Shown here one piece after another: positions 3,314 through 22,109 of a stretch of DNA of 29,008 nucleotides. Below the pieces are notes generated by a model. It saw only the letters and a program-made list of their open reading frames with translations. It was not told the origin of the DNA and ran no database searches. Each line of letters begins with the position of its first letter. Positions within the stretch are counted from its first letter, which is position 1. Source of the DNA: an uncultured Methanosarcinales archaeon. Its GTDB lineage: Archaea > Nanobdellota > Nanobdellia > Woesearchaeales > JAGVZT01. Both the position numbers and the translations under genes were made by a program. The stretch is taken from assembly GCA_964419615.1 (NCBI GenBank), contig CAYQPU010000021.1:1-29008 (forward strand). Reading direction: 5' to 3'.

Positions 3314-3484
3314 ACCTAAAGGAAAACAAGTAAAACATATAAAACTTGTTTAGATATATTTTTAAACCGAAAATTCTTCGAGAAAAACTTCAAAATCTTG
3401 ATAAATTATAATTTGATTGGTACATTTATGCAATCCAAGATATCAAAAGAATTATATAGTTATTATAGCTTCTTATATGGCATA

Positions 3485-3715
3485 ATGCCAACAACAATTC
3501 AACTAAAAAAAACAACTCTTCAAAGACTCAAATACTTTAAAGTATATTCTAAAGAAAGCTATGATGAAATTATAAACAAGCTACTTGACACAATTGAAGA
3601 GGGAGATCTAACAAAAGATGCAATTAATGATATTCAAAAAGCATTATCTGAAATGAAGTCTGGCAAAGGAGAACTAATTGGAGATGTAGCACAAGAGCTT
3701 GGTGTTAATCTATGA
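3485..3715 (+). CDS. Type II antitoxin (archaeal RelB-like)
   Basis: Likely start MPTTIQLKK at 3485; TTIQL..ESYDEII pattern with acidic tail; ATGA overlap with the relE-like gene. Confidence 0.75.
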   Translation: MPTTIQLKKTTLQRLKYFKVYSKESYDEIINKLLDTIEEGDLTKDAINDIQKALSEMKSGKGELIGDVAQELGVNL

Positions 3716-3963
3716 AAATCATCATACAACCAACTGCAAAAAAACATCTTAAAAAACTTTCAAACAAGACAGCAGCAACAATTCTAAAAAAGCTTTACAC
3801 TATTAGAAGTAATCCTTTAGCACACATTGAAAAACTAAAAAACTCTCGTTTGTGGAAACTTCGAATTGGAGATTATAGATGTATTCTTTATGTAAATACA
3901 AAAAAGCAAGAAATTCATGTATTATTAGTAGGTCATAGGAAAAATATCTATAAACAACTTTAG
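3712..3963 (+). CDS. relE: RelE/ParE-family toxin (mRNA interferase)
   Basis: 83 aa, very basic, with KLRIGDYR and VGHRKNIY motifs. Confidence 0.9.
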   Translation: MKIIIQPTAKKHLKKLSNKTAATILKKLYTIRSNPLAHIEKLKNSRLWKLRIGDYRCILYVNTKKQEIHVLLVGHRKNIYKQL

Positions 3964-5385: not shown

Positions 5386-5859
5386 GTGATGGGAATGATT
5401 GAAAAAAAAGAGTATTTGATATTCAGCCACTTAAGAAAAGACGGGAGACAAACACTAACCACAATGAGTAAAAAAACAAAAATTCCCATAAGCACTATAT
5501 ATGACAAGTTAAAGCTTTATGATGGAGATCTAATCAGAAAACACACTTGTTTATTAGACTTTCAAAAACTTGGATTTACAACAATAGCTCACATACTTGT
5601 TAATGTAGACAAATCTGTTAAAGAAGAAGTAAAAGAATACTTAACCTGCCACATGAATGTAAACTCCATTAGTAGAGTAAATAACAATTATGATTTTCTA
5701 ATAGAAGTTGTTTTCAGACACTTAGGAGAAATGGAAGACTTCTTAGACAATCTTGAGGAGAAGTTCCCTATCAATCAAAAACAAGTGTTTTACGACATAG
5801 AACAAATCAAAAAAGAAGGATTTATGGATGATCCAGAGATATTGGATGTTATTGTTTAA
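5386..5859 (+). CDS. Lrp/AsnC-family transcriptional regulator
   Basis: HTH (LRKDGRQTLTTMSKKTKIPISTIYDKLK), LDFQKLG linker, AsnC ligand-binding domain. Confidence 0.9.
   Translation: MMGMIEKKEYLIFSHLRKDGRQTLTTMSKKTKIPISTIYDKLKLYDGDLIRKHTCLLDFQKLGFTTIAHILVNVDKSVKEEVKEYLTCHMNVNSISRVNNNYDFLIEVVFRHLGEMEDFLDNLEEKFPINQKQVFYDIEQIKKEGFMDDPEILDVIV
5800..5852 (+). repeat. Direct repeat copy A (3' end of the Lrp gene)
   Basis: 50/53 nt identical to 6835-6887 (manual alignment). Confidence 0.9.
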
Positions 5860-5875
5860 GGTATGATTTTTGGAG

Positions 5876-6718
5876 TCAGTCTTTTGACATATCTATTTTT
5901 TCTTTCTTTTTTTGTTTTGGTAAAAAGTTATCCTCTGAGATTACAGATTTACCAAGACGTTTTTCAATATTTACTCTTGTTTCCAAAGCAACTTCTCCTC
6001 CTCCCTTTGCAGATTTCTTACACTCTTTGAGTCCTTTTGAATCTTCTTCTTTTGTAATATCTGTTGTTGCCTTTTCTCCAACCATAGTAAGAATTAGTTC
6101 CCAGTCAGTCATATGATCTCTTAAGTTTTGATTCTGTCTCTTTAGACTTTTGAATTCTTTGTATTCACCAACAGTCTTACCAAAGGTTGCTTTGGATATT
6201 TCGTTTGTTAATATTGCGAATTCATTTTTTGTCTTTATTTCTCTGTTTTTCCACTCTTCTGTTAGTTCTTGTCTTATTGCAATCCCACGTAATCGTTTAT
6301 CTATCCATTCTTTAGGATAACCTTTGAGTTCATAATATTCTTTAATTCTATCTTGACCCAACTCAGGATTCTCAATTTCTTCTATTCTTTCATACCCAAC
6401 TTGAGCAAGCCATCTTTTGAATGGTTCTGCTTTTTTTGATGGAATTGATTGGATAATTCTAAAGAGTGACTTTGTGTTTGCACAGTCTGTTAATCTCTGC
6501 TTTCCATCAGATGCTTCTAATTTCAACTGTACCCAAATTGGGGACAGTTCAAGAGTTTTAAATTCTCTACTTTTAACTTTTCCCCAATACTGTCTTGGTG
6601 TTGGACTTTCTGTAAGAACTGACACAACATCTACCACAGAAAAATACCATTCTTTTTCATACCAAACTCTTCGTATTTTTTTGTCTTGGAAAACAATTAT
6701 TTTGTTTTTTTCTTCCAT
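5876..6718 (-). CDS. Bro-N domain protein (phage antirepressor-like)
   Basis: IRRVW...WYFSVVDVV, LKLEASDGKQRLTDCA, RIIQSIPSKKAEPFKRWLA motifs. Confidence 0.85.
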   Translation of the reverse strand: MEEKNKIIVFQDKKIRRVWYEKEWYFSVVDVVSVLTESPTPRQYWGKVKSREFKTLELSPIWVQLKLEASDGKQRLTDCANTKSLFRIIQSIPSKKAEPFKRWLAQVGYERIEEIENPELGQDRIKEYYELKGYPKEWIDKRLRGIAIRQELTEEWKNREIKTKNEFAILTNEISKATFGKTVGEYKEFKSLKRQNQNLRDHMTDWELILTMVGEKATTDITKEEDSKGLKECKKSAKGGGEVALETRVNIEKRLGKSVISEDNFLPKQKKKEKIDMSKD

Positions 6719-6770
6719 TTACAGTAGAATAGCATTTGATCTTTATATATCTTAAGAGTGAATGTCCAGT

Positions 6771-6894
6771 GGGAAAATGGTTAATTGTGAAATAGAGGCT
6801 CTCTATCGATTCAAAATAAGTGTTTTAGGAGATTGAACAAATCAAAAAACAAGGCTTTATGGATGATCCAGAGATATTAGATGTTATATTTTAA
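6771..6894 (+). pseudogene. Degenerate duplicate of the Lrp 3' end (direct repeat copy B)
   Basis: Encodes IEQIKKQGFMDDPEILDVIF*, versus IEQIKKEGFMDDPEILDVIV* in the intact gene; upstream part diverged, with stops. Confidence 0.8.
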
Positions 6895-6921
6895 TTAATG
6901 TTACTACTTCCAAATGATGAA

Positions 6922-6940
6922 AAACCGAAACATTTATATA
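6922..6940 (+). promoter_or_regulatory. Archaeal BRE + TATA promoter upstream of secA
   Basis: AAACCGAAA followed by TTTATATA (6933-6940), about 40 nt before the ATG at 6979. Confidence 0.6.
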
Positions 6941-6978
6941 TGTAAATATGTATTTCTAACATTAACCTTAAAATCAAG

Positions 6979-9900
6979 ATGGTAAAAAACCTATTTAGCA
7001 AAGCACTTCAGAATTCTCATGATGAAATCATGGAGAAATACTTATCCTTAGTTGACCGAATTAATGATTTAGAGCAAGAGTTCTCAGAATTAAGTGATGA
7101 TGAATTAGCAGCCAAAACTCAAGAATTTAGAAAAAGAATTGTTATTGACGGAGAAACCCTTGATGATCTTCTCCCAGAAGCTTTTGCAACTGTTAGAGAG
7201 GCGAGTAAAAGAACAATAGGACAAAGACATTATGATGTACAATTAATGGGGGGAATCGCAGAGCATGAAAGAACCATAGCAGAAGTGAGAACAGGGGAAG
7301 GAAAAACCCTAATGGCTACTCTACCAATATATCTTAATGCTCTTGATGTTAATCCTGATTGGATAAAAGCAGCAGAAAAAATGTTTGGTGGAAAAAGTAA
7401 AGATGAGTGGGAGTACCAAAACATAATTGCAGGAAAAACAGTCATACCCATTGGAAAGGGTGTACATCTTGTGACAGTAAATGACTATTTAGCACGAAGA
7501 GATGCAAGATGGATGAGTCCCATATTCAAGTTTTTGAGAATGAATACGGGTGTTTTACAAAGTAATTCAAAAACTGAACATGGTAAATATTCTTACATTG
7601 TCACTCCTTTTGCATATTCTCCTGACGAATTTAATAATGGTCTTACTTTGGTGCCTCGAGAAATAACCTACCAAGAAGATATTACATATGGATCAAAAAA
7701 TGAGTTTGGACATGATTATTTAAGAGATAATATGAAAATGAGTCTTGGGGAAAGAGTACAAAGAGGGCACCATTTTGCCATTATTGATGAAGTGGATAAT
7801 GTTCTAATTGATGATGCACGTACACCATTAATAATTTCTGGTCCAAAGCCTGGATCAGTTGATATGTTCCAAACAATTGACACAGTTGTTAAACAATTAA
7901 AATCAACTCATTTTGATATTGAAGAAAAAAACAGAAGCTTAAGCCTTACAATAAAAGGAGAGCAAAAAATGAATCAACTACTTCAAGATATTGGGATAAC
8001 TGATGAACCATTATTTAAACAGAATGGAGACAGTCTTGATTTGGTGGAGCTTACTATCCCAGAAGTAGTATTAAATGGATACATTCAACAGTGCTTAAAT
8101 GCAAATTTTATTTACAAAAAAGGAAAGGACTATGAAGTGGAGGGAGACAAAGTTATCATTGTTGATCATTTTACAGGCAGACTTATGCCTGGTAGGAGAT
8201 GGTCAGATGGATTACACCAGGCAGTAGAAGCTAAAGAAGAAGTTCCAGTTGAACCAGAAAGCACTACTTATGCTACAATAACTATCCAAAATTACTTTAG
8301 AATGTATGAGAAACTTGCAGGGATGACAGGAACAGCTATTGAAGATTCAGAAGAATTTGGGGATATTTATAAACTTGATACTATTGAAATACCAACTCAT
8401 GTTGATTATCTTGCATCATTGCCTGAATCTGGACTTGAATTGGTGAGGACCAAAGATATGGAAGGTTTTGATATTGAATACTGGAGCCATACAGATGATC
8501 CAGATCAAAAGCCAATTTTTCACAGAAGACAAGATCGTCCAGATACAATATATAAAACCCCAGAAGGAAAAGTAAGAGTTATCTCATCAGAAATTTTAAG
8601 ATCCTATGTGCATGGAAGACCTGTTCTAACTGGCACTACTTCAGTGGAAAAGTCTGAAATCATATCGGACAGATTAGGTAAAGAATCGATTCAAAAATTA
8701 TCTACTTGGCTTCTTTTAAGAAACCATTATCTTCAGCAAAGGAGCAGGAAACAAGATGGAAAAAGGATAAAAGAACTTAAAGAATTTGATGAAGAATCCG
8801 ATGGAACAGCAATTCCTTTAAATAATTTGGATATGTCTAGGTTAGAAGAAAAAGCCCTTGAACTTGGATATGATCAGCCAATAGTAGATTATGTTGACAC
8901 CATTTTAGATGCTTTGAATGTTTTTGATTTTGGACAAAGAGAACAGAGTCGGGAAAGACTTATTTATGCTTTAGAAAATGGGGTACCTCACAATGTCCTA
9001 AATGCAAGACATGAAGCACAAGAAGCTCAAATAATTGCTGGTGCAGGTGCTTTTGGTGCTGTTACAATAGCTACCAATATGGCCGGCAGAGGTGTTGATA
9101 TTAAGTTGGGAGGAGCTCTGCCAGATGAAATAATCATAAAAGTGAATGATTATCTTTCTAGAAATGGTTATGAAGAACCAACAGTCTTATCTCTTGATGA
9201 AAAAATTGATGGTATTGGTATCTTAGCTGAAGAAAACATAGATATGGATCAAGATATTTTATCTTTTATAGAATATTCAAAAGAAAGGCAAATGGTTATG
9301 GAACTAGGCGGATTAGATGTTATTGGTTCTGAGAGAAACGAAGCAAGAAGAATTGACAATCAGCTTAGAGGAAGGGCAGCAAGACAAGGTGAACCAGGTA
9401 GAACTCGTTTTTGCATATCTTATGAAGATGAACTTTTACTTAGGTTTGGCTCTGGAGCACCTGTTAAATTATTGAATCACCTTGTTGATATTGACCCTTA
9501 TTTTCCAGTAGATCATAAATTGATTTCAAAATTTATTGAAGGAGCTCAAAGTAGAGTTGAAGGTGCTAACTTTGATGTTAGAAAACATCTACTTGCATAT
9601 GATGATGTTCTAAATAAACAAAGAAAAACAATCTACGGATTCAGGGACAAGGTACTGGCTGAACTTTATCTAACAGACATAATGTTTAAGCATTTTAAAG
9701 AAGAAGTGTATTTTAGAGCTGCAATGGAATTGGAAGTTGATGAAACTGTGGAGGAATTGGCTGCTGAAATAAATGCACAAGGTGTAATAGTTGATAAAAA
9801 TGCAGATGAGTTGGAAATTGATGAGAATGCAAGAGAATTATTTTTATCTTTGAACAGATTGCAGCCATCAATGCAGATAGGAGAACACATGGTGGACTCA

Positions 9901-10545
9901 TTTTTTAATACTCTATTAACAAAAGAAATGCAATACCAGGATCCAAATCAAATATCTGATGAAGCATGGAAGATTGTTGAAAAATACCTAACCAAAACAA
10001 AACCTAAGAAAATAGCTGAGGAATTTTCAAAGCATGCAAGGTTAAACTTTGAATTGATAGCACAGCAAATAGGATATGAATTAATGGGAAAGTTCTCCAA
10101 GATCCAACCAAAAGTGAGGATTGGCATTCTTCCACACCCAGAATTGTATCAGTTAGCTAAGGAAACCGCTGAGATAGGAGAAAATCCTGAGAAGCAAAAA
10201 GAATTTTTAGAAAAAAGACAATCAATAGAACAGAAACTTTTTGGGGAAATGCAAGTAACAGATATTTTTAGAAAAGGTATTGTAAGAGATGCTGGTCATC
10301 TCTGGATGGATTATTTATCTTATGCAGAAGCTGAGAGGGTAAGAGTAGGATTACATGCTTATGGACAAAGAGATCCTCTTGTTGTATACAAAACAAGAAG
10401 TCATGCAGAATTTGAGAATGTTGTTGGTGAAATAAGAAATAGAATTGCAGAGAATTTATTCAAGGTTGCCCATAATAAATACACGCAAGCTTGTCAACCA
10501 ATGCAATTCAGAGTTCCAGGTCAGATAACAAGACCAAAGCCTTAA
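6979..10545 (+). CDS. secA: Preprotein translocase ATPase SecA (bacterial type, 1188 aa, with insertions, no C-terminal Zn finger)
   Basis: RTGEGKT, VTVNDYLARRDA, DEVD...DARTPLIISG, DGLHQAVEAKE, TIQNYFRMYEKLAGMTGTA, ATNMAGRGVDI, RRIDNQLRGRAARQGEPG, AYGQRDPL. Confidence 0.97.
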   Translation: MVKNLFSKALQNSHDEIMEKYLSLVDRINDLEQEFSELSDDELAAKTQEFRKRIVIDGETLDDLLPEAFATVREASKRTIGQRHYDVQLMGGIAEHERTIAEVRTGEGKTLMATLPIYLNALDVNPDWIKAAEKMFGGKSKDEWEYQNIIAGKTVIPIGKGVHLVTVNDYLARRDARWMSPIFKFLRMNTGVLQSNSKTEHGKYSYIVTPFAYSPDEFNNGLTLVPREITYQEDITYGSKNEFGHDYLRDNMKMSLGERVQRGHHFAIIDEVDNVLIDDARTPLIISGPKPGSVDMFQTIDTVVKQLKSTHFDIEEKNRSLSLTIKGEQKMNQLLQDIGITDEPLFKQNGDSLDLVELTIPEVVLNGYIQQCLNANFIYKKGKDYEVEGDKVIIVDHFTGRLMPGRRWSDGLHQAVEAKEEVPVEPESTTYATITIQNYFRMYEKLAGMTGTAIEDSEEFGDIYKLDTIEIPTHVDYLASLPESGLELVRTKDMEGFDIEYWSHTDDPDQKPIFHRRQDRPDTIYKTPEGKVRVISSEILRSYVHGRPVLTGTTSVEKSEIISDRLGKESIQKLSTWLLLRNHYLQQRSRKQDGKRIKELKEFDEESDGTAIPLNNLDMSRLEEKALELGYDQPIVDYVDTILDALNVFDFGQREQSRERLIYALENGVPHNVLNARHEAQEAQIIAGAGAFGAVTIATNMAGRGVDIKLGGALPDEIIIKVNDYLSRNGYEEPTVLSLDEKIDGIGILAEENIDMDQDILSFIEYSKERQMVMELGGLDVIGSERNEARRIDNQLRGRAARQGEPGRTRFCISYEDELLLRFGSGAPVKLLNHLVDIDPYFPVDHKLISKFIEGAQSRVEGANFDVRKHLLAYDDVLNKQRKTIYGFRDKVLAELYLTDIMFKHFKEEVYFRAAMELEVDETVEELAAEINAQGVIVDKNADELEIDENARELFLSLNRLQPSMQIGEHMVDSFFNTLLTKEMQYQDPNQISDEAWKIVEKYLTKTKPKKIAEEFSKHARLNFELIAQQIGYELMGKFSKIQPKVRIGILPHPELYQLAKETAEIGENPEKQKEFLEKRQSIEQKLFGEMQVTDIFRKGIVRDAGHLWMDYLSYAEAERVRVGLHAYGQRDPLVVYKTRSHAEFENVVGEIRNRIAENLFKVAHNKYTQACQPMQFRVPGQITRPKP

Positions 10546-10779
10546 CTACTTAACCAAATCTTCAATAGGCTTATCTTGTTTCTTAGCTTCTTTCATTAAT
10601 TCTTCAGCTTCTTTTTCAAGATCAACACCTAGATCTTTAAGACCTTTGATGTGCATTTGCATTAATTGCTCAACAATCTGCAGGATCTTATACATCTCCT
10701 GTCTTTCTTTAACTAATGTTGATAATGCTCCTTTATGAAAACCTACTTGTTCATCCTTACTTGCTTCTTTTTCTGCCAT
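10546..10779 (-). CDS. Small coiled-coil hypothetical protein
   Basis: 77-aa ORF with GGTGA SD-like element; amphipathic helical pattern. Confidence 0.7.
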   Translation of the reverse strand: MAEKEASKDEQVGFHKGALSTLVKERQEMYKILQIVEQLMQMHIKGLKDLGVDLEKEAEELMKEAKKQDKPIEDLVK

Positions 10780-10813: not shown

Positions 10814-11695
10814 TTAAATCTTTTTCGATAATTTAGGTTTTTTAATTTGATAACCCATTTGTACAAGAAACTCCCTTGCTGTGTTAACTCCATCCTCAAA
10901 TGCATGAGGAGAATAACTTCCCACCATCTTTCTTTTGTAGAATGGTTGCATGTCTTCTCCAATTAATTTTGGGCTGTCACTTAAATAAGCTCTTGCAAGT
11001 TTGTGTTGACTTGACCTTCCCAGAGCATCAATAATCTCTGCTGCTGCATACTCCACACCTCTACTAGCAAACATTTTCTCAATCACACCAGTTAATCCGA
11101 ATAACATTTGTATTCTATCATGATTTGGAGTCTCCTCTTGTTTTAAGAATTCTAATTTTGCAGTCAAAAAATCTAAAGGATGTGGAACATGATAGGTTGA
11201 ACCAAACATCTGTGCTTGTACTGCGTTCTGAAAAAATTCAGGTGTAACAATATATTTTCCGAAATGAACATTTGGCAGATCTGTTTGCCCTAGCCAAAGA
11301 TCAACTTCTACAGGAGGTTCACCCCATCTAATAGCAGCAGACACTTTATCTCTACCTCCATTTTGGTAGCTAACACTTGAAGGTTTATACTTTGAAAATT
11401 CAAATAAGTCAAAAAGAATGCATAGACTATCTTCACTGACAGCAATCAGATCAAGATCAACAGCCTTTTCTGGATCATCATTAGGTAAGGGATTTGGTAC
11501 ATACAATACATCATGTTTTAAAGCTAAAGCCAATAGGCCAAATTCATCAACAGACAAAACCTTTCCAGAATCACACATTTCAGCAACATGCATAGATAAA
11601 TCTAAAGCTTTTATCACATCATGCTCTCTATGATTATCAACTAATGCATCCATAACAATATCTTCACTTATCCTTGGTTTCTTTTTCTTTGCCAT
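10814..11695 (-). CDS. Putative Pol-beta-fold nucleotidyltransferase-like protein
   Basis: G..A.AL, DLDL (DxD), VDLW (third acidic residue), HVPHPLDFLTAKL resembling the 'v.spedli..Kl' motif. Confidence 0.45.
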   Translation of the reverse strand: MAKKKKPRISEDIVMDALVDNHREHDVIKALDLSMHVAEMCDSGKVLSVDEFGLLALALKHDVLYVPNPLPNDDPEKAVDLDLIAVSEDSLCILFDLFEFSKYKPSSVSYQNGGRDKVSAAIRWGEPPVEVDLWLGQTDLPNVHFGKYIVTPEFFQNAVQAQMFGSTYHVPHPLDFLTAKLEFLKQEETPNHDRIQMLFGLTGVIEKMFASRGVEYAAAEIIDALGRSSQHKLARAYLSDSPKLIGEDMQPFYKRKMVGSYSPHAFEDGVNTAREFLVQMGYQIKKPKLSKKI

Positions 11696-11697
11696 TT

Positions 11698-12540
11698 TTA
11701 TTCTAAATACCTATTTGATTCTAAAAATTCTCTTGCTACAACATTACTTTCATAGAATGGAGCATCTGTTGGACCAACTAATGAACTATCTATGCTCATG
11801 TAAATCATAGCAAGTCTTGGAACAGTTATCTCATTTAACTGATGCTTTATTGATTCCGCAATGCTTACTACTCCTTTTCCTTCCTTTTCTACAAATTCTT
11901 GTTCTAGAAAATCTGTTAAATTAAGAACATCAGCAGCGATTCTGTAATCAGCTTTGTCAAATCCAAGCCTTGCTGACAAAAACCTGTAAACATCAGGAAC
12001 ACAAATTGGAATCCCCCAAACATTAGCTTTCCATCCATTACTAATAAAACGTGGTTCCACCAACTGTTCTCCATATTGTACTTTTGGTTCCTGACTCATT
12101 GTCCATATAAAAATATCAGTATCTCTGTTAACCTTTCCAACTCTAACATCCTTATAACCTGGTGACATTGAAGTATGATCTCTAAATTCTACTTGTACCA
12201 GGCTACCTGACAAACCTTCCTCTGCACCATAGCCTTTTGCAATCATCTCAAGGTTATGACTTTTTTTGTATCTGATGTCACAATTAATACCAACACTTTT
12301 CATAATTGCCCAGACTGCAAACTGATCAACAAACACATATTGAGGTTTTAAAGTAAAAGGATCAAAAGGTTCTAAATCATCATATGCATCAGATTCTGGA
12401 ATTGAGAATCTTTCCTCAAGATTCTGTGCAGTTTTTAAAAACACATTAAACACTTCAGCAGTTGCTAAACTCATATTTTTTGGTTTTGTAACCTGCAAAT
12501 AGTCTTGATAATCATCAGAACTCATATTATCAAATATCAT
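11698..12540 (-). CDS. Distant paralogue of 10814-11695, catalytic motif degenerate
   Basis: Matching segments NLEMIAK/DLDLIAV, DTDIFIW/EVDLWLG, VPDVYRFLSARL/VPHPLDFLTAKL, AREFLESNRY/AREFLVQMGY. Confidence 0.45.
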   Translation of the reverse strand: MIFDNMSSDDYQDYLQVTKPKNMSLATAEVFNVFLKTAQNLEERFSIPESDAYDDLEPFDPFTLKPQYVFVDQFAVWAIMKSVGINCDIRYKKSHNLEMIAKGYGAEEGLSGSLVQVEFRDHTSMSPGYKDVRVGKVNRDTDIFIWTMSQEPKVQYGEQLVEPRFISNGWKANVWGIPICVPDVYRFLSARLGFDKADYRIAADVLNLTDFLEQEFVEKEGKGVVSIAESIKHQLNEITVPRLAMIYMSIDSSLVGPTDAPFYESNVVAREFLESNRYLE

Positions 12541-14974: not shown

Positions 14975-17830
14975 CTAGCTTGCATAACCCGCTAATGCAG
15001 ACTGATCACCATTAAAAACATTAGCATCAGTCTTGCCATGAGTTTCTGTTGCAATTCCATTAGTTATTCCATAAACAGGTTGACAATCTCCACAAGTCTG
15101 CCAGAAATCCCAGGTGTCCCAAGTATCCGGAATTGTTGGACAATCAACACCCCAGTGTGCAATCCACAATGGATATTCACCAAATTGTTCCTTAGCTGCA
15201 CTAGGGTTAAATCCATTCCAAAAACCAACACTTGTATATATCAAAGGTTTTTTACCGGTAGCAGCTTCAACAGTTTCCAGCCAATCTTTCATATTCCTAA
15301 ACCAATCATCAGTTGAGGCATGTATCATTTGCTGATCAGTTGGATCTATCTCTAAATCCAAAACAGCAGGTAATTCTCCAAAATCTCCTTCCATCATTGA
15401 CAGGAATTTTTGAGCTTGACCAACACCATCAACATAAGGAACAAAAAAGTGATATGCACCTCTATACACTCCCTGTGCTTTTGCTTCTCTCCAATTCCTC
15501 TTAAACTCTGGATCTTCTGTTGTACTATATGTTGCTCTGATAAATGCAAAGCCAACACCATAATCAGGGTCACTTACAACTTCATGCCAACGGATATCTC
15601 CTTTCCACTTTGAAACATCAATACCAGTAGCAGCATCTTGGCCCCCACAAATAGTAGTAGAGCCACCTCCTCCAGCACCCCAACCACTGCCTCCACTTCC
15701 ACCACCAGAGCCTCCACCACTTCCTGAACCTCCAGAGCCTCCACCACCACCTGTACCTCCTGTTGCACAGATACCACTACAACCATCTTGTGGTTCATCA
15801 AACATATGATCTTTAATCAGTTCATAAGCAATATAAAAATCAACTTTTTCTTTTCTAACATCATTATAATCTTGGGACTCAACCAAAAGCCAGCATCTTC
15901 CTTTTCTTTCAACAGAACCATATATCAGTAAAGGAGTTTGACCATCAAAAGCCATATCATCTCTATACTGCATGCAGTTATAGTCCCCATAATAGTCACA
16001 GAACTCTAATGTTCTTGTATCAGATGGTTGACAAGTATAAAAAGTCCTACCATTAAAATTCTCATCAAAATCAATAGGACAAGGAAAGTATTCTTGAGGT
16101 TCTGCATCTCCTTCAGGACAATCAGCACCACCAGATGATTGACTCCTTACTGGGCTTAATGGATTTGGTGGTTTAGGAACAGTAGCTCCACCCGGTACCC
16201 AAACGTTGTAGGTATATTGGTTTGTTTCATATTCAACAGTATACTCTGTGCAAGTTGCTGTCTCCATGTCCCAAGGATTACAATCTGGCTGACCAACGCA
16301 CACCTTTGGAACTTCCATTGTTGCACCAGACTGATCACACAGTAAAAAGGATTCATCAACATTAATACCAAAACCTTTGAATGTGACATCTGCTCTTGCC
16401 TTAAAACAAGCATCTTCTGGTTCTAACCTATTCCTACCAAAAAGATCAAAGTGTTGAGTAGCATCTTTGAAATCTAGTACGTCAATTTTGCACCAATCAT
16501 CACTGTCAGGAGTACAGACAGCTTTAATAACCATGTCTTTTTCAGGTTTCTCTGTTGGACTATCGGTGTCTCTCTTACCTACTTCTGGCAGTCTATCCTC
16601 TTTTGTCCATAAGCAAGAATCACCATTATCATAAAAGGCAATCTTGTTGTCTCTCATCTCTCTTTCAAATTCAAAATTCTCATACCAAAAATAGTAAGTT
16701 GTGCATGTACAATTACCAGAAGGAGGCTCATCTTCACATCCACCTGTACACTCATGACAACCACCACATGAATCTGTCTGTCTTACAACAGGTGTTGGAC
16801 CAACACATACATCTCCATCTCCAACACCACCTTTACCAATACCTGTTGATTTAATGTATAATTCTCCAGGAATCTCAGAAGGAGGTGGCGGAGGAGATTT
16901 GGTCCATCCCTCACAACTTTGACAACCTTCTGTTAATGTCCATTCAGGCAATTGAAGAATTGTATCACTCTCCTCAGTACACCTCAGTACAACACCAAAC
17001 GGAGTAAAGTGTGTTGTCTCAGCCTCAATCACATTCTCATCAACATCAACAACAGATGAATCCAAAGAAACCCACATATCAAGATTCTTGTCATAAAAAC
17101 CAAGCATTAAATCTTCTTCTTTGATTGTTAATGGAATATCTTTTTGATGATAACTCATAATCAATTTAACTGGCTGGGAAAACTGTGCTCCATCAGGAAG
17201 TCCCCTATAAGCAAGCATACCCATCAAAACTCTATTAGACAGTCCCTCAAATTCCCTGTCCAAAAGCTCAATACCAGGTCTATCTCCACCAGTCATTGTG
17301 GTTCCTGGAGGAACAATAATCTGGAATCTATTATCATGAGATGTAATTAATGTCTCATCACCTGCTTTGATAGGTTCATATAACTTTCTTGGAACAACAT
17401 AATTTTGTTCTTTAAATGTAATAGTAGCAGGACTCTTGGTCATCTCAATTGGATATTCTAAATCAACATCAATAGTGACATCATTAATATCAACTTTAAC
17501 GGTAATATCCTCCTCTTCTACTTCAAACCCTTCTTCTCTGAATGCCTCAAAACCTTTGGTACAGGCAACAACATTCTTAGATATATAATCTATTAACCAA
17601 TCAGTACTTATATCCTCATCAATACCATAATAAACCATGGCATCATTTGAGACAAGTTCTAGACAAGAACCCATAAAAAAATTCAAGGCCTCTTGAGTTG
17701 TTTTTGTATCACTAATCTCATGAGTATTTGGCTCACCACCTTTATTTGAAACCATAAACACTGCTGCAAACGCAAGTAACAAAACAATAGCTAAAATCAG
17801 GAAAATACTTGTCTGGGATTTTGAACTCAT
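14975..17830 (-). CDS. Large surface protein: class III (pilin-like) signal, ZU5-like domain, Cys-rich region, Gly/Ser linker, C-terminal GH25 muramidase
   Basis: KSQ + hydrophobic helix; GH25 motifs at about 14975-15625: GIDVSKW, FAFIRAT, RGAYHFF, PAVLDLE (DxE at 15350-15358), PLIYT, LWIAHW, WDFWQ, DANVF. Confidence 0.9.
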   Translation of the reverse strand: MSSKSQTSIFLILAIVLLLAFAAVFMVSNKGGEPNTHEISDTKTTQEALNFFMGSCLELVSNDAMVYYGIDEDISTDWLIDYISKNVVACTKGFEAFREEGFEVEEEDITVKVDINDVTIDVDLEYPIEMTKSPATITFKEQNYVVPRKLYEPIKAGDETLITSHDNRFQIIVPPGTTMTGGDRPGIELLDREFEGLSNRVLMGMLAYRGLPDGAQFSQPVKLIMSYHQKDIPLTIKEEDLMLGFYDKNLDMWVSLDSSVVDVDENVIEAETTHFTPFGVVLRCTEESDTILQLPEWTLTEGCQSCEGWTKSPPPPPSEIPGELYIKSTGIGKGGVGDGDVCVGPTPVVRQTDSCGGCHECTGGCEDEPPSGNCTCTTYYFWYENFEFEREMRDNKIAFYDNGDSCLWTKEDRLPEVGKRDTDSPTEKPEKDMVIKAVCTPDSDDWCKIDVLDFKDATQHFDLFGRNRLEPEDACFKARADVTFKGFGINVDESFLLCDQSGATMEVPKVCVGQPDCNPWDMETATCTEYTVEYETNQYTYNVWVPGGATVPKPPNPLSPVRSQSSGGADCPEGDAEPQEYFPCPIDFDENFNGRTFYTCQPSDTRTLEFCDYYGDYNCMQYRDDMAFDGQTPLLIYGSVERKGRCWLLVESQDYNDVRKEKVDFYIAYELIKDHMFDEPQDGCSGICATGGTGGGGGSGGSGSGGGSGGGSGGSGWGAGGGGSTTICGGQDAATGIDVSKWKGDIRWHEVVSDPDYGVGFAFIRATYSTTEDPEFKRNWREAKAQGVYRGAYHFFVPYVDGVGQAQKFLSMMEGDFGELPAVLDLEIDPTDQQMIHASTDDWFRNMKDWLETVEAATGKKPLIYTSVGFWNGFNPSAAKEQFGEYPLWIAHWGVDCPTIPDTWDTWDFWQTCGDCQPVYGITNGIATETHGKTDANVFNGDQSALAGYAS

Positions 17831-19265: not shown

Positions 19266-21299
19266 TCAATCTCCACCTCCTCCTAAAGCAATATCAACAT
19301 CCTCTTTTTTAACCCAAATGTCTAGATTCCATTGGCGCCCATTATGATTGATCAAATGTTGTGCTTCGAGCAACAACCAGCAAACATCATCCACCATAGC
19401 AGAACCAAAAATCAAAAGTTCTGTACTCTCATCATAAGATACAAAACTTAATTGATCCATTTCTGGATAATCACCGTACATATCTGCAAACTCATCTCTG
19501 CTCCTTGTTTCAAATGAATTACTTGCTGTAAAAGTTAGTCCTTTATAATCCTCTTCGTATTCTTCACAAGGAGTACTGTATGTTGGGTGAACAAAAGTGG
19601 TCACAGCAATTCTATCTTTCATATTCTTTGTTGTACCATCAGTAATACCTGTTCCTTCTCTATACTCCCATTTACATACATTTTGATAGCACTTACAATC
19701 AGCCATCTTCACCTGTCTTGGAGTACCTCCAAAAAATGGCATCTGCTTTGACTCACCATCATTTTCACACACATAATAAGAACCTTCTTTTTGAATTCCA
19801 AACCCACTATATTGGACAGTTGATCCTTGTTTTAAAAGTGCATCTTCTCCATCATTTGTTGCCTCTAATTTGAAAGTTAAAACATTAGCCTCTAATTTTT
19901 CATCTAAAATCAAACAAGTGTCATCTTCTCCAGACCAACACCTAGATATAAGCAAAATATCTGCAGTAATATCATCTGGATCAGTGTTAGTATTAGTTTC
20001 AGAATCGATCTTTTCTATTTGTACACTATCCTCAGTGTTTTCATCCCAAATACAAGAACCACCCAAACCTTCAAAAGTTATTTCAATAGCTCTATCAATT
20101 TTAAATTCATTAGGTTCATAATAATAATAATAAAATGAATCACACTTACAAGCAGGAATTCCTCCGCCCTTAGGTTCTGGACATTGTCCACCAACTTCTC
20201 CAGAACACTCTCCCTTACAATCAGAACAATCTACAACATCATATTTTATTTGAATAGGTCCTTTACAGGTATCTATCCTATCTCCAATACCATTACCTTG
20301 AGTAACTTCCACTCCCTCAATAAACAACTTCTCTCCACCACCACCTGGAACAGACCCATAAGCCCAACCCTCATCAGGCTCACAATCCTCTTTGATAGCC
20401 AGAACAATTGAATTCTCAGCTATGTCCTCTAATTCAGTACATTTAATAACAATTGCATATTTAGTGAAATGGTATGTTTCAGCCACAAGCTTGTTTTCTA
20501 CAACATCAACTTGGGTTGGAATTGCAAGCCAAACACCAGTAGGTTCATCATAATAAGCAATTCGTAAATCTTCTTCTTTCACAGTGAAAGGTACTTCTGA
20601 ATCATTATAAAGCATAGTTAACTCAACTGGTTTTGAGAATTTGGCACCATTAGGATAAGCATCAAACGCAAGCATATTCATTACAACGTTGTTCTTAAAT
20701 CCATAATCTTCCCTGTCAAGAATTTTAAAACCAACTTCTTGTTTGTTATTATTAAGAATTCTAGCCCCAGGAGGAATTATCATTTGAAATTCCCTATGTG
20801 GTGATGAGAGAATAGTCTCTTTGTTTTCTTCAATCTCAGTCCACTTAATTCTATGAAGAATAAAGTTTTGATTTTTAAATTTAATAATTGTGTCGGCCTT
20901 AACCATTGTTATTGGATATTCTAACTCCACAGTTAATGTTTTACCTGTGATTTCAACATCAACAACAATATCCTCTTTTGTAATCACAAATCCTATTTCC
21001 TCGAACATTTTCAAATTGTCAGTACACCCTGGCAAGTTAGTCTTTATCTGCTCTTCAATAAAATCATTGCTAACACCAGAAAGAATCCCATAATCATGGA
21101 CAGCTTGGTTAGTAGTATCTTCCAAACAAGATCTTATTAGAAAATTGAGTGAATCTTGATTTCCTTTAAGATTGATACTTCCTTCAACATCAGGTTTAAC
21201 TAGAACTGATTCTTTACTAAACAAAAATAGACTGATACCTGCTAAAAGAACAATTGCAATAATGAGAAAAACCGCTATCTGACCTCTTTTTTTGAACAT
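19266..21299 (-). CDS. Large surface protein, paralogue of 14975-17830 (KRGQ class III signal, ZU5-like, Cys-rich), ending at an in-frame TGA inside a Gly linker
   Basis: Colinear similarity with the GH25 carrier (SCLE, LEYPI, PPG, LDRE, KEEDL, HFT, YGDY, LLI.GS, CWLL); ends ALGGGGD-TGA. Confidence 0.85.
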   Translation of the reverse strand: MFKKRGQIAVFLIIAIVLLAGISLFLFSKESVLVKPDVEGSINLKGNQDSLNFLIRSCLEDTTNQAVHDYGILSGVSNDFIEEQIKTNLPGCTDNLKMFEEIGFVITKEDIVVDVEITGKTLTVELEYPITMVKADTIIKFKNQNFILHRIKWTEIEENKETILSSPHREFQMIIPPGARILNNNKQEVGFKILDREDYGFKNNVVMNMLAFDAYPNGAKFSKPVELTMLYNDSEVPFTVKEEDLRIAYYDEPTGVWLAIPTQVDVVENKLVAETYHFTKYAIVIKCTELEDIAENSIVLAIKEDCEPDEGWAYGSVPGGGGEKLFIEGVEVTQGNGIGDRIDTCKGPIQIKYDVVDCSDCKGECSGEVGGQCPEPKGGGIPACKCDSFYYYYYEPNEFKIDRAIEITFEGLGGSCIWDENTEDSVQIEKIDSETNTNTDPDDITADILLISRCWSGEDDTCLILDEKLEANVLTFKLEATNDGEDALLKQGSTVQYSGFGIQKEGSYYVCENDGESKQMPFFGGTPRQVKMADCKCYQNVCKWEYREGTGITDGTTKNMKDRIAVTTFVHPTYSTPCEEYEEDYKGLTFTASNSFETRSRDEFADMYGDYPEMDQLSFVSYDESTELLIFGSAMVDDVCWLLLEAQHLINHNGRQWNLDIWVKKEDVDIALGGGGD

Positions 21300-21327: not shown

Positions 21328-21364
21328 AAGTTTATGGAAAAGAGTAAAAAAGCGGGAGGAGGGA

Positions 21365-21451
21365 CTTTCAAGACTATTTTCCAAAGCGAATTCGACAAAG
21401 TCGAAGACGCCATTTTTGATCGAACTTTTCAGCGAAGCGGAAAAAGGTCGA
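21365..21451 (-). other. 87-nt T-loop (59/60) intron of tRNA-Cys
   Basis: TTCA/TGAA helix with AAT and AGT bulges; contains the CTTTT..AAAAGTTCGATCAAAA module. Confidence 0.88.
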
Positions 21452-21473
21452 TTTGAACCCTCGCATCGTCGGG

Positions 21474-21506
21474 ATCTGCATATCATAGCCGAAGCTCAAT
21501 ATCCCG
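21474..21506 (-). other. 33-nt anticodon-loop (37/38) intron of tRNA-Cys
   Basis: CTGC/GCAG central helix, bulges AAC and ATC, internal AGC-TTCG-GCT hairpin. Confidence 0.88.
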
Positions 21507-21564
21507 TTGCAGCCGACTGCCTTAGCCGGACTTGGCCACTCCCGCAATAATGGACCCGAAGGGA

Positions 21565-21682
21565 CTTTCGACATCCTTTCCACAGCTTGTACCATGGCTA
21601 TCTCGTTACATAAAGGCCATGTTATGGGACTTTATGTCCCATTACTTTTGGTCAAGCTTTTGCCCGAAGGGGAAAAGATTGA
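21565..21682 (-). other. 118-nt T-loop (59/60) intron of tRNA-Arg
   Basis: TTCG/CGAA central helix (compensatory relative to TTCA/TGAA in Lys and Cys), AAT and AGT bulges. Confidence 0.9.
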
Positions 21683-21704
21683 TTCGAACCCTTGATCTAC
21701 AGCT

Positions 21705-21749
21705 GTCTGAAATCGCGGATTTCCGAGCAAATCTCAGTTCCCTCGATAT
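21705..21749 (-). other. 45-nt anticodon-loop (37/38) intron of tRNA-Arg, relaxed motif
   Basis: Removal restores ACAGC-CTTCTAA-GCTGT; central helix poorly paired; junction ambiguous by one A. Confidence 0.8.
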
Positions 21750-21768
21750 TAGAAGGCTGTCGCCTTAT

Positions 21769-21885
21769 ATGCCCGAACAATTAATATCCTCAATCATCAC
21801 GTATCGTGGCAATCACGTTTTCATAAAGGCCACGCCAAGGGGCTTTAGCCCCTTATGTTTTAATCGAACTTTTCTTAAAAGTTCG
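21769..21885 (-). other. 117-nt D-loop (19/20) intron of tRNA-Arg
   Basis: BHB with GTCT/GGGC helix, bulges GGC and ATA, GAAC/GTTC stem; cleavage restores AGTCTGGATAAGGC. Confidence 0.88.
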
Positions 21886-21929
21886 CCAGACTAGGCTACG
21901 GGTCCATACTCAATAGGGCTTTTAAGCAA

Positions 21930-21943
21930 TATATAAATTTTTC
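21930..21943 (-). promoter_or_regulatory. BRE + TATA for the tRNA-Arg/tRNA-Cys operon
   Basis: GAAAAATTTATATA; TATA about 25 nt upstream of the tRNA-Arg 5' end. Confidence 0.7.
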
Positions 21944-21954
21944 TTATATAATCA

Positions 21955-22046
21955 GAAAACACCACCTTGGCGCGATGCAGCTAAACCAGAAAGGTTTAGC
22001 GAAATAGGACTGGCAAGGCCGTCGCTGCCAGGGAGGGGGTGTTTTC
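21955..22046. ncRNA. Unidentified GC-rich structured element (candidate ncRNA)
   Basis: Terminal 9-bp GAAAACACC/GGTGTTTTC stem, long inner stem, and 8-bp GCTAAACC/GGTTTAGC hairpin in an AT-rich genome. Confidence 0.45.
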
Positions 22047-22109
22047 CATGAAACAACACTTATGATCATCCTTTTTATCAAAACCTTTAAAAGAAAACAT
22101 ATCTCACAC

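Follow-up and report, generated by a model that had tools for sequence, protein, structure and literature searches.

The window analysed here is a stretch of 29,008 nucleotides that makes up one entire contig (C21, 29,008 bp) of a metagenome-assembled genome (MAG) of a marine woesearchaeote (Woesearchaeota, DPANN). It carries an intact gene for SecA, the export motor of bacteria, set in an archaeal chromosome. The gene was acquired horizontally from Anaerolineae-type Chloroflexota, as the phylogenetic comparisons confirm. With confidence slightly above even, we read its product as a long-kept, non-essential accessory export motor that would drive the archaeal SecYE-beta channel of the host. 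Archaea have been stated to have no SecA homologue, and the motor of archaeal post-translational export has been stated to be unknown (PMC6098224, 2018; PMC13673990, 2026). In the searchable literature we found no report of SecA in DPANN or Woesearchaeota.

A complete SecA of the bacterial type

The secA coding sequence (6979–10545, plus strand) is a single open reading frame of 1188 amino acids. Four Pfam domains follow each other in canonical order: PF07517 (SecA_DEAD, E = 1.3e-106), PF01043 (SecA_PP_bind), PF21090 (P-loop_SecA) and PF07516 (SecA_SW). This is the layout of SecA, in which the first nucleotide-binding domain (NBD1) with the inserted preprotein cross-linking domain (PPXD) is followed by the second (NBD2) and by the scaffold/wing region. 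The protein passes the NCBIfam model PRK12904 (842.8 bits, cut-off 814) and narrowly misses TIGR00963 (786.2, cut-off 800). It stays far under the cut-offs of all the SecA2 models, namely TIGR03714 (513.7 against 930), TIGR04221 (408.7 against 725) and TIGR04397 (621 against 1085). Full-length alignments to solved SecA structures, 3JUX among them, have E values of 1e-160 to 1e-155. The translation and its alignment show the motor motifs GEGKT (Walker A), DEVD, TNMAGRG and RIDNQLRGRxxRQG, and the tyrosine of the two-helix finger (HAYGQRDP) is retained. No Cys-rich zinc-finger tail was found at the C-terminus.

The family scores and the alignments confirm the window gene as a real, complete secA of bacterial type. 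The putative ATPase motor, preprotein clamp and two-helix finger are kept despite about 50% divergence from known bacterial SecAs. The preliminary description had already recognized an intact protein of 1188 aa from its DEAD-motor, PPXD and scaffold motifs and had noted the missing zinc finger. The extent that it gave, 6922–10545, covers the SecA reading frame, but its start takes in the promoter region, and the ATG lies at 6979.

Conservation was measured over 199 near-invariant columns, defined as those at least 96% identical across 46 bacterial SecAs (bacterial values by leave-one-out). The window SecA keeps 183 of them (92%), and divergent DPANN SecA-like proteins keep 50–59% of the same columns.

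Alignment to the SecA of Thermotoga maritima defines five additional segments, including those after YLNAL and within NBD2 that had been noticed earlier. Right after YLNAL, NBD1 contains an insertion of the 'NPxW...W' type (36 aa, about aa 123–158; 7345–7452, plus strand). A second segment covers aa 476–516. NBD2 has two insertions, both on the plus strand: aa 571–665 (8689–8973), also found in the SecA of a related genome discussed below (G005), and aa 713–772 (9115–9294), located at the variable subdomain position after DIKLGG. The last segment is an expanded helical wing/scaffold insert (aa ~908–1095; 9700–10263, plus strand), which in the Anaerolineae relatives is longer by about 200 aa.

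The gene belongs to an archaeal genome

The host MAG (G000) comprises 1.48 Mb in 64 contigs and is 99.4% complete and 2.3% contaminated. Its uS5 protein is of the eukaryotic/archaeal type and its SecY of the PRK08568 type. A DRG-type GTPase (MMR_HSR1_Xtn + TGS) is encoded 3 kb from secA; its best named matches are all from Candidatus Woesearchaeota, and the closest of these (79% identity) sits on an 86-kb contig. In GC content (0.342) and tetranucleotide profile, the window does not stand out from the MAG. In codon usage, secA deviates less from the genome mean than 97% of the genes of at least 700 aa do (3rd percentile of distance); its GC3 is 0.215 (genome median 0.236).

The surroundings of secA are conserved in a second genome of the same genus (G001, 99% complete). 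On the left flank, the order of the NUDIX (70%), AbrB-PhoU (84%) and Lrp-like (81%) genes is kept. On the right flank, a homologue of window 10814–11695 and the AsnS-like (66%), DRG (76%) and GH25 (51%) genes follow in order, and DNA alignment places a conserved 77-aa gene on this side in G001 as well. Both insertion junctions are spanned by a 13.2-kb JGI contig (L017) that has one mismatch to the window (99.99% identity). The junction between secA and the 77-aa gene was seen in nine contigs, each from a different JGI or ENA sample, and identity to the window is 99.9% or more in all aligned contigs.

The window is a MAG contig and the closest homologues of its SecA are all bacterial, so that an artefact, with mis-assembly or mis-binning bringing a bacterial fragment into an archaeal contig, has to be considered. 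Synteny on both flanks, the recurrence of the junctions in different samples and the host-like GC, tetranucleotides and codon usage make this exceedingly unlikely. Moreover, no near-identical SecA is known in any bacterium (best 52%). The earlier placement of a bacterial-type SecA in a genuine archaeal chromosome is thus borne out, as is the presence of archaeal genes on both sides, among them those for the DRG-type GTPase and the AbrB-PhoU and Lrp-like proteins.

Origin from Anaerolineae

In a search space of 5.8 billion proteins, the best matches to the window SecA are SecAs of 1355–1400 aa from Anaerolineae/Chloroflexota, with 47–52% identity; only its own copies are closer. Phylogenetic trees place it within the clade of long-type Anaerolineae SecAs (SH-aLRT 100%), Thermoflexus and other Chloroflexota branching deeper. 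Its own branch is long (1.4–2.2 substitutions per site). The NPxW insertion in NBD1 (31–36 aa after YLNAL) is present in all 116 parsable closest matches and in seven named Chloroflexota genomes. It is diagnostic of one Anaerolineae SecA subclade, the donor group. The preliminary description had rightly likened an insertion of this kind to Chloroflexota SecA and had proposed a horizontal acquisition. Tree placement and the shared insertion confirm this acquisition, with Anaerolineae-type Chloroflexota as the source. The long-type protein is the sole SecA of five Anaerolineae genomes, which points to a housekeeping gene as the donor copy.

The long housekeeping SecAs of Anaerolineae (1270–1400 aa) belong to the same clade as the window SecA, have the same set of insertions, NPxW included, and are likewise devoid of the zinc finger. 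The window SecA differs from them in its sequence (about 50% identity), in its AT-rich archaeal codons and in its coexistence with an archaeal SecY. Its wing/scaffold insert is also shorter, by about 200 aa, and the polybasic tail is missing. With canonical SecA1 proteins (T. maritima 3DIN/3JUX, Escherichia coli 2FSF/6S0K and Bacillus subtilis 1M6N), all domains and motor motifs align; the differences are the five extra segments and the channel encoded in the genome, which is archaeal and not SecYEG. An open frame of 1188 codons at 35% GC, about 50% diverged and with host-like codons, implies a long residence under purifying selection.

Proposed function of SecA beside an archaeal SecY

The genome codes for one SecA and one SecY. 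Neither a second SecY (SecY2) nor a bacterial-type SecYEG channel was found in the host genome; SecDF is encoded, and bacterial YidC was not found. The SecA2 systems (Gram-positive SecA2/SecY2 and mycobacterial SecA2) offer a parallel, as there too a non-essential SecA would provide a second export route. However, the window SecA derives from a housekeeping SecA1, has no second SecY at its side and scores under the SecA2 cut-offs. Plastid cpSecA is a SecA that works outside free-living bacteria after transfer. It pairs with a co-inherited cpSecY of the bacterial type, whereas the genome with the window SecA has an archaeal channel.

We favour, with little more than even confidence, an accessory export motor of Anaerolineae origin. 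An archaeal TATA promoter would drive transcription of the gene, and the protein would bind unfolded secretory proteins in the cytoplasm. SecA would then push the bound proteins, post-translationally and at the expense of ATP, through the host's own SecYE-beta channel. This route would be accessory to normal co-translational export. Both the docking of SecA on the archaeal SecY and its role in translocation are inferred. A canonical SecA that is secure in an archaeal chromosome and long kept there offers a concrete case in which to test if a Sec61-like channel can be driven by a bacterial motor, and the SecA-less relative and the natural frameshift alleles described below are built-in controls.

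Several observations weigh against an export motor. The sole SecY is of the archaeal/Sec61 type (E = 1e-106 with Pyrococcus furiosus SecY, 6e-72 with Sec61-alpha and 1e-10 with E. coli SecY). Its cytosolic loops 6/7 and 8/9, the binding sites of SecA in bacteria, have the same sequence in the host and the SecA-less G001, and so give no sign of co-adaptation. The inspection of the SecY C4/C5 loops envisaged in the preliminary description therefore revealed no adaptation to SecA. The polybasic tail of the donors is lost, the last 15 residues containing three K/R against a median of nine in the 120 closest matches. The retention of near-invariant positions (92%) is slightly under the lowest bacterial value (93.6% by leave-one-out), which makes the protein slightly more diverged at these positions than any bacterial SecA compared. 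Finally, G001, although of the same genus and 99% complete, has no secA, and two of the six assemblies covering codons 173–188 carry differing frameshifting deletions in the gene. In favour of the motor, loop 8/9 of the host SecY contains the PGFR motif, as in other SecY/Sec61 proteins, a motif which we take to be linked to SecA binding. A complex prediction of two SecA pieces (PPXD, 285–425; scaffold/wing, 835–1188) with the archaeal SecY gave no verdict (score 0.00).

The archaeal type of SecY, unchanged from the SecA-less relative, together with the loss of the tail that binds membranes or ribosomes in the donors, the shortened wing insert and the conserved motor residues, would also suit a SecA kept for channel-independent work. 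It might act as an ATP-dependent holdase or unfoldase, or, in association with ribosomes or the membrane, as a chaperone of secretory or large proteins. We give this a rather low probability. The translocation-specific parts are retained: PPXD, the scaffold and the two-helix finger, tyrosine included. In addition, no partner gene lies alongside, the neighbours being older host genes or a viral cassette.

The preliminary description had also suggested that SecA exports very large surface proteins or acts on the translocon of a bacterial partner; our data support neither proposal. Action on the translocon of an Anaerolineae partner cell is highly improbable. Two genera of one archaeal family have SecAs from two Anaerolineae subclades (see below), which hints at repeated contact, but contact with DNA suffices for gene transfer and does not require a shared function. 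SecA is a cytosolic motor without a signal peptide or delivery module, and no injection system is linked to the gene.

Variant alleles and dispensability

The deletions affect a hot spot at codons 173–188 (7496–7542, plus strand), which encode the conserved motif ARRDARWM..F. One ENA assembly (L124) lacks 7496–7541 (46 nt) and another (L125), from a different sample, lacks 7512–7542 (31 nt); in both, the frameshift splits secA. The site is intact in the other four assemblies (the window, L017, L018 and L127). A synonymous single-nucleotide polymorphism (SNP) is common to L124, L125 and one intact ENA contig, which indicates that the two deletions are recent, separate events. A metagenome scan with a 28-mer adjoining the deletion site gave no match. 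The deletions may be an assembler artefact, although the flanking microhomologies are just 3 nt in both cases. More generally, a mutational hot spot, selection for loss or an artefact may each explain two deletions at one spot.

These two frameshifts in a nearly clonal population, the three nonsynonymous against two synonymous SNPs found in its secA, the absence of the gene from G001 and the long branch of the window SecA in all trees could be the marks of a passenger on its way out, functional in the donor but now neutral or mildly harmful and turning into a pseudogene. We give this explanation a rather low probability, similar to that of a channel-independent role. A 1188-codon frame at 35% GC that is 50% diverged and uses host codons implies long purifying selection. 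The hot spot is intact in four of the six assemblies, and secA is kept in all nine contigs with the 3' junction.

The missing gene in G001 and the frameshifted alleles indicate that secA is non-essential; it looks useful to the host all the same. 'Domesticated', the term used in the preliminary description, is therefore too strong for this acquisition. The decay in relatives that it had envisaged is seen in the two frameshifted population variants, but not in the four assemblies that are intact at the site.

Other SecA genes in the order

Three overlapping samples were surveyed: 61 relatives, 401 genomes from the whole phylum and 401 from the order. G362 and G540 are unpublished genomes; they enter some of the counts, and the other claims are independent of both. 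The only close SecA in the surveyed genomes is a protein of 1193 aa, 46% identical to the window SecA, in another genus of the same family (G005, 64% GC). The NBD1 insertion is found neither in this protein nor in any of its 110 closest matches (110/110 without it), and the protein groups with a different subclade of Anaerolineales (SH-aLRT 98%). Monophyly of the two archaeal SecAs was not rejected by the AU test (LG+G4, p = 0.108). Two separate captures from Anaerolineae are predicted as the simpler reading over one shared transfer.

GC is about 63% at the SecY, DRG and SecA loci of G005 (L007, L013 and L123), in a family that is otherwise AT-rich (33–44% GC). Contamination by a bacterial contig was considered for the 64%-GC SecA locus and is weakened by the DRG and SecY loci, which are also at 62–64% GC. 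The SecA contig further carries a match to archaeal-type PolB, under its cut-off, and a DUF7523 gene. From the GC match, PolB and DUF7523, the contig appears to belong to the archaeal genome, but this is not certain.

Elsewhere in the order, bacterial-type SecA domains also occur in DPANN MAGs, in proteins that differ from the window SecA in clade or have 25–27% identity to it. FastTree places the SecAs of G515 and G446, on long branches, outside the Chloroflexota clade. Six genomes code for SecA-like proteins of 974–1758 aa, only 25–27% identical to the window SecA. Proteins of this kind at L106, L108, L109, L110 and L111 (G144, G259, G201, G331 and G119) have SecA_DEAD, PPXD and P-loop domains; they share no more than 25–27% identity with canonical SecA and make up a separate, divergent SecA-like family. 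None of the surveyed SecAs is orthologous to the window gene, possibly with the exception of the G005 copy.

A broader proposal would be that Woesearchaeota repeatedly captured bacterial SecA, at least twice from Anaerolineae in one family and on other occasions in the order, because SecA can drive archaeal SecYE-beta. We put it forward tentatively and think it less likely than the accessory motor in the present host. If it holds, SecA would be the first ATP-driven motor of post-translational Sec export in Archaea, forming a natural hybrid with a Sec61-like channel. The window secA is known from one near-clonal population, and SecA is limited to rare archaeal lineages. The sporadic pattern with multiple sources adds to the heavy flow of bacterial genes into DPANN archaea.

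Structure of the insertion and promoter

The left syntenic anchor is the Lrp/AsnC-like gene (5386–5859, plus strand; 81% identical to the G001 orthologue), for whose protein an exact look-up matched no record. The right anchor is the 77-aa gene (10546–10779, minus strand), the stop codon of which directly abuts that of secA. According to the DNA alignment, about 70 nt separate the Lrp stop from the stop of the 77-aa gene in G001, against 4,686 bp in the window (5860–10545). A direct repeat of 101 nt is present on the plus strand of the window. The first copy (5759–5859) is the true 3' end of the Lrp-like gene, and the second (6794–6894) is a decayed duplicate of it (85%).

The sole content bracketed by the repeat is a 1,035-bp cassette with a viral-type Bro-N gene (Pfam Bro-N; 5876–6718, minus strand), divergent from secA and absent from G001. 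The viral family phrog_15286 matches it over its full length (E = 6.9e-92). As the repeat brackets this cassette alone, the viral cassette appears to have arrived separately beside the secA insertion. The latter is compact and contains a single gene, placed between two convergent chromosomal genes; it covers ~6895–10545, with 84 nt of upstream sequence, and no integrase or insertion sequence element was found in it. The L124 and L125 assemblies both break at window 6329, inside the Bro-N gene, which suggests that the cassette is variable in the population.

An exact TATA-box-like octamer (TTTATATA; 6933–6940, plus strand) lies 46 nt upstream of the ATG of secA. Exact TTTAWATA motifs occur genome-wide at 28–35 nt before start codons in 128 of ~250 cases, with a shoulder at 39–63. 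The peak indicates that transcription in this archaeon is probably mostly leaderless; the position of the octamer, -46 against -28 to -35, would give secA a short leader, with transcription predicted to begin at about 6963–6966 if the TATA box at 6933 is used. The octamer is consistent with an archaeal promoter upstream of secA, as modest evidence and not as proof. Of the BRE/TATA promoter proposed earlier, the TATA part is thus found as an exact octamer, but the BRE match is weak and the octamer is off the genome-wide peak.

Other features of the window

Two large proteins are encoded downstream of secA. The first (951 aa; 14975–17830) has a C-terminal GH25 muramidase domain, so that a DPANN archaeon here encodes a hydrolase of bacterial cell walls, and lies in a stretch of raised GC (0.40). 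The second (677 aa; 19266–21299) shares its N-terminal region with the first, and both have homologues in G001. Closer to secA, two tandem genes without a family (293 and 280 aa; 10814–12540) are apparent distant paralogues, of which G001 has one copy. One ENA contig (L018) diverges from the window past 12193, and the remainder of this contig has no match in the MAG, which points to structural variation there. On the other side of secA, a small gene pair (3398–3963), annotated as DUF7557 and ParE toxin on an identical JGI contig, is likely to be a toxin–antitoxin system.

The region 21350–22050 is GC-rich (44–56%) in a contig of 34% GC and has no convincing open reading frame. ARAGORN and Rfam made no call in the window at standard thresholds, this region included. 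It folds better than shuffled sequences on both strands (z = -3.3 and -3.8), and its minus strand has two T-loop-like motifs (GGGTTCGAATC and GGGTTCAAATC) and a 5' end resembling that of a tRNA. Unusual tRNA genes, for instance with introns, may lie here.

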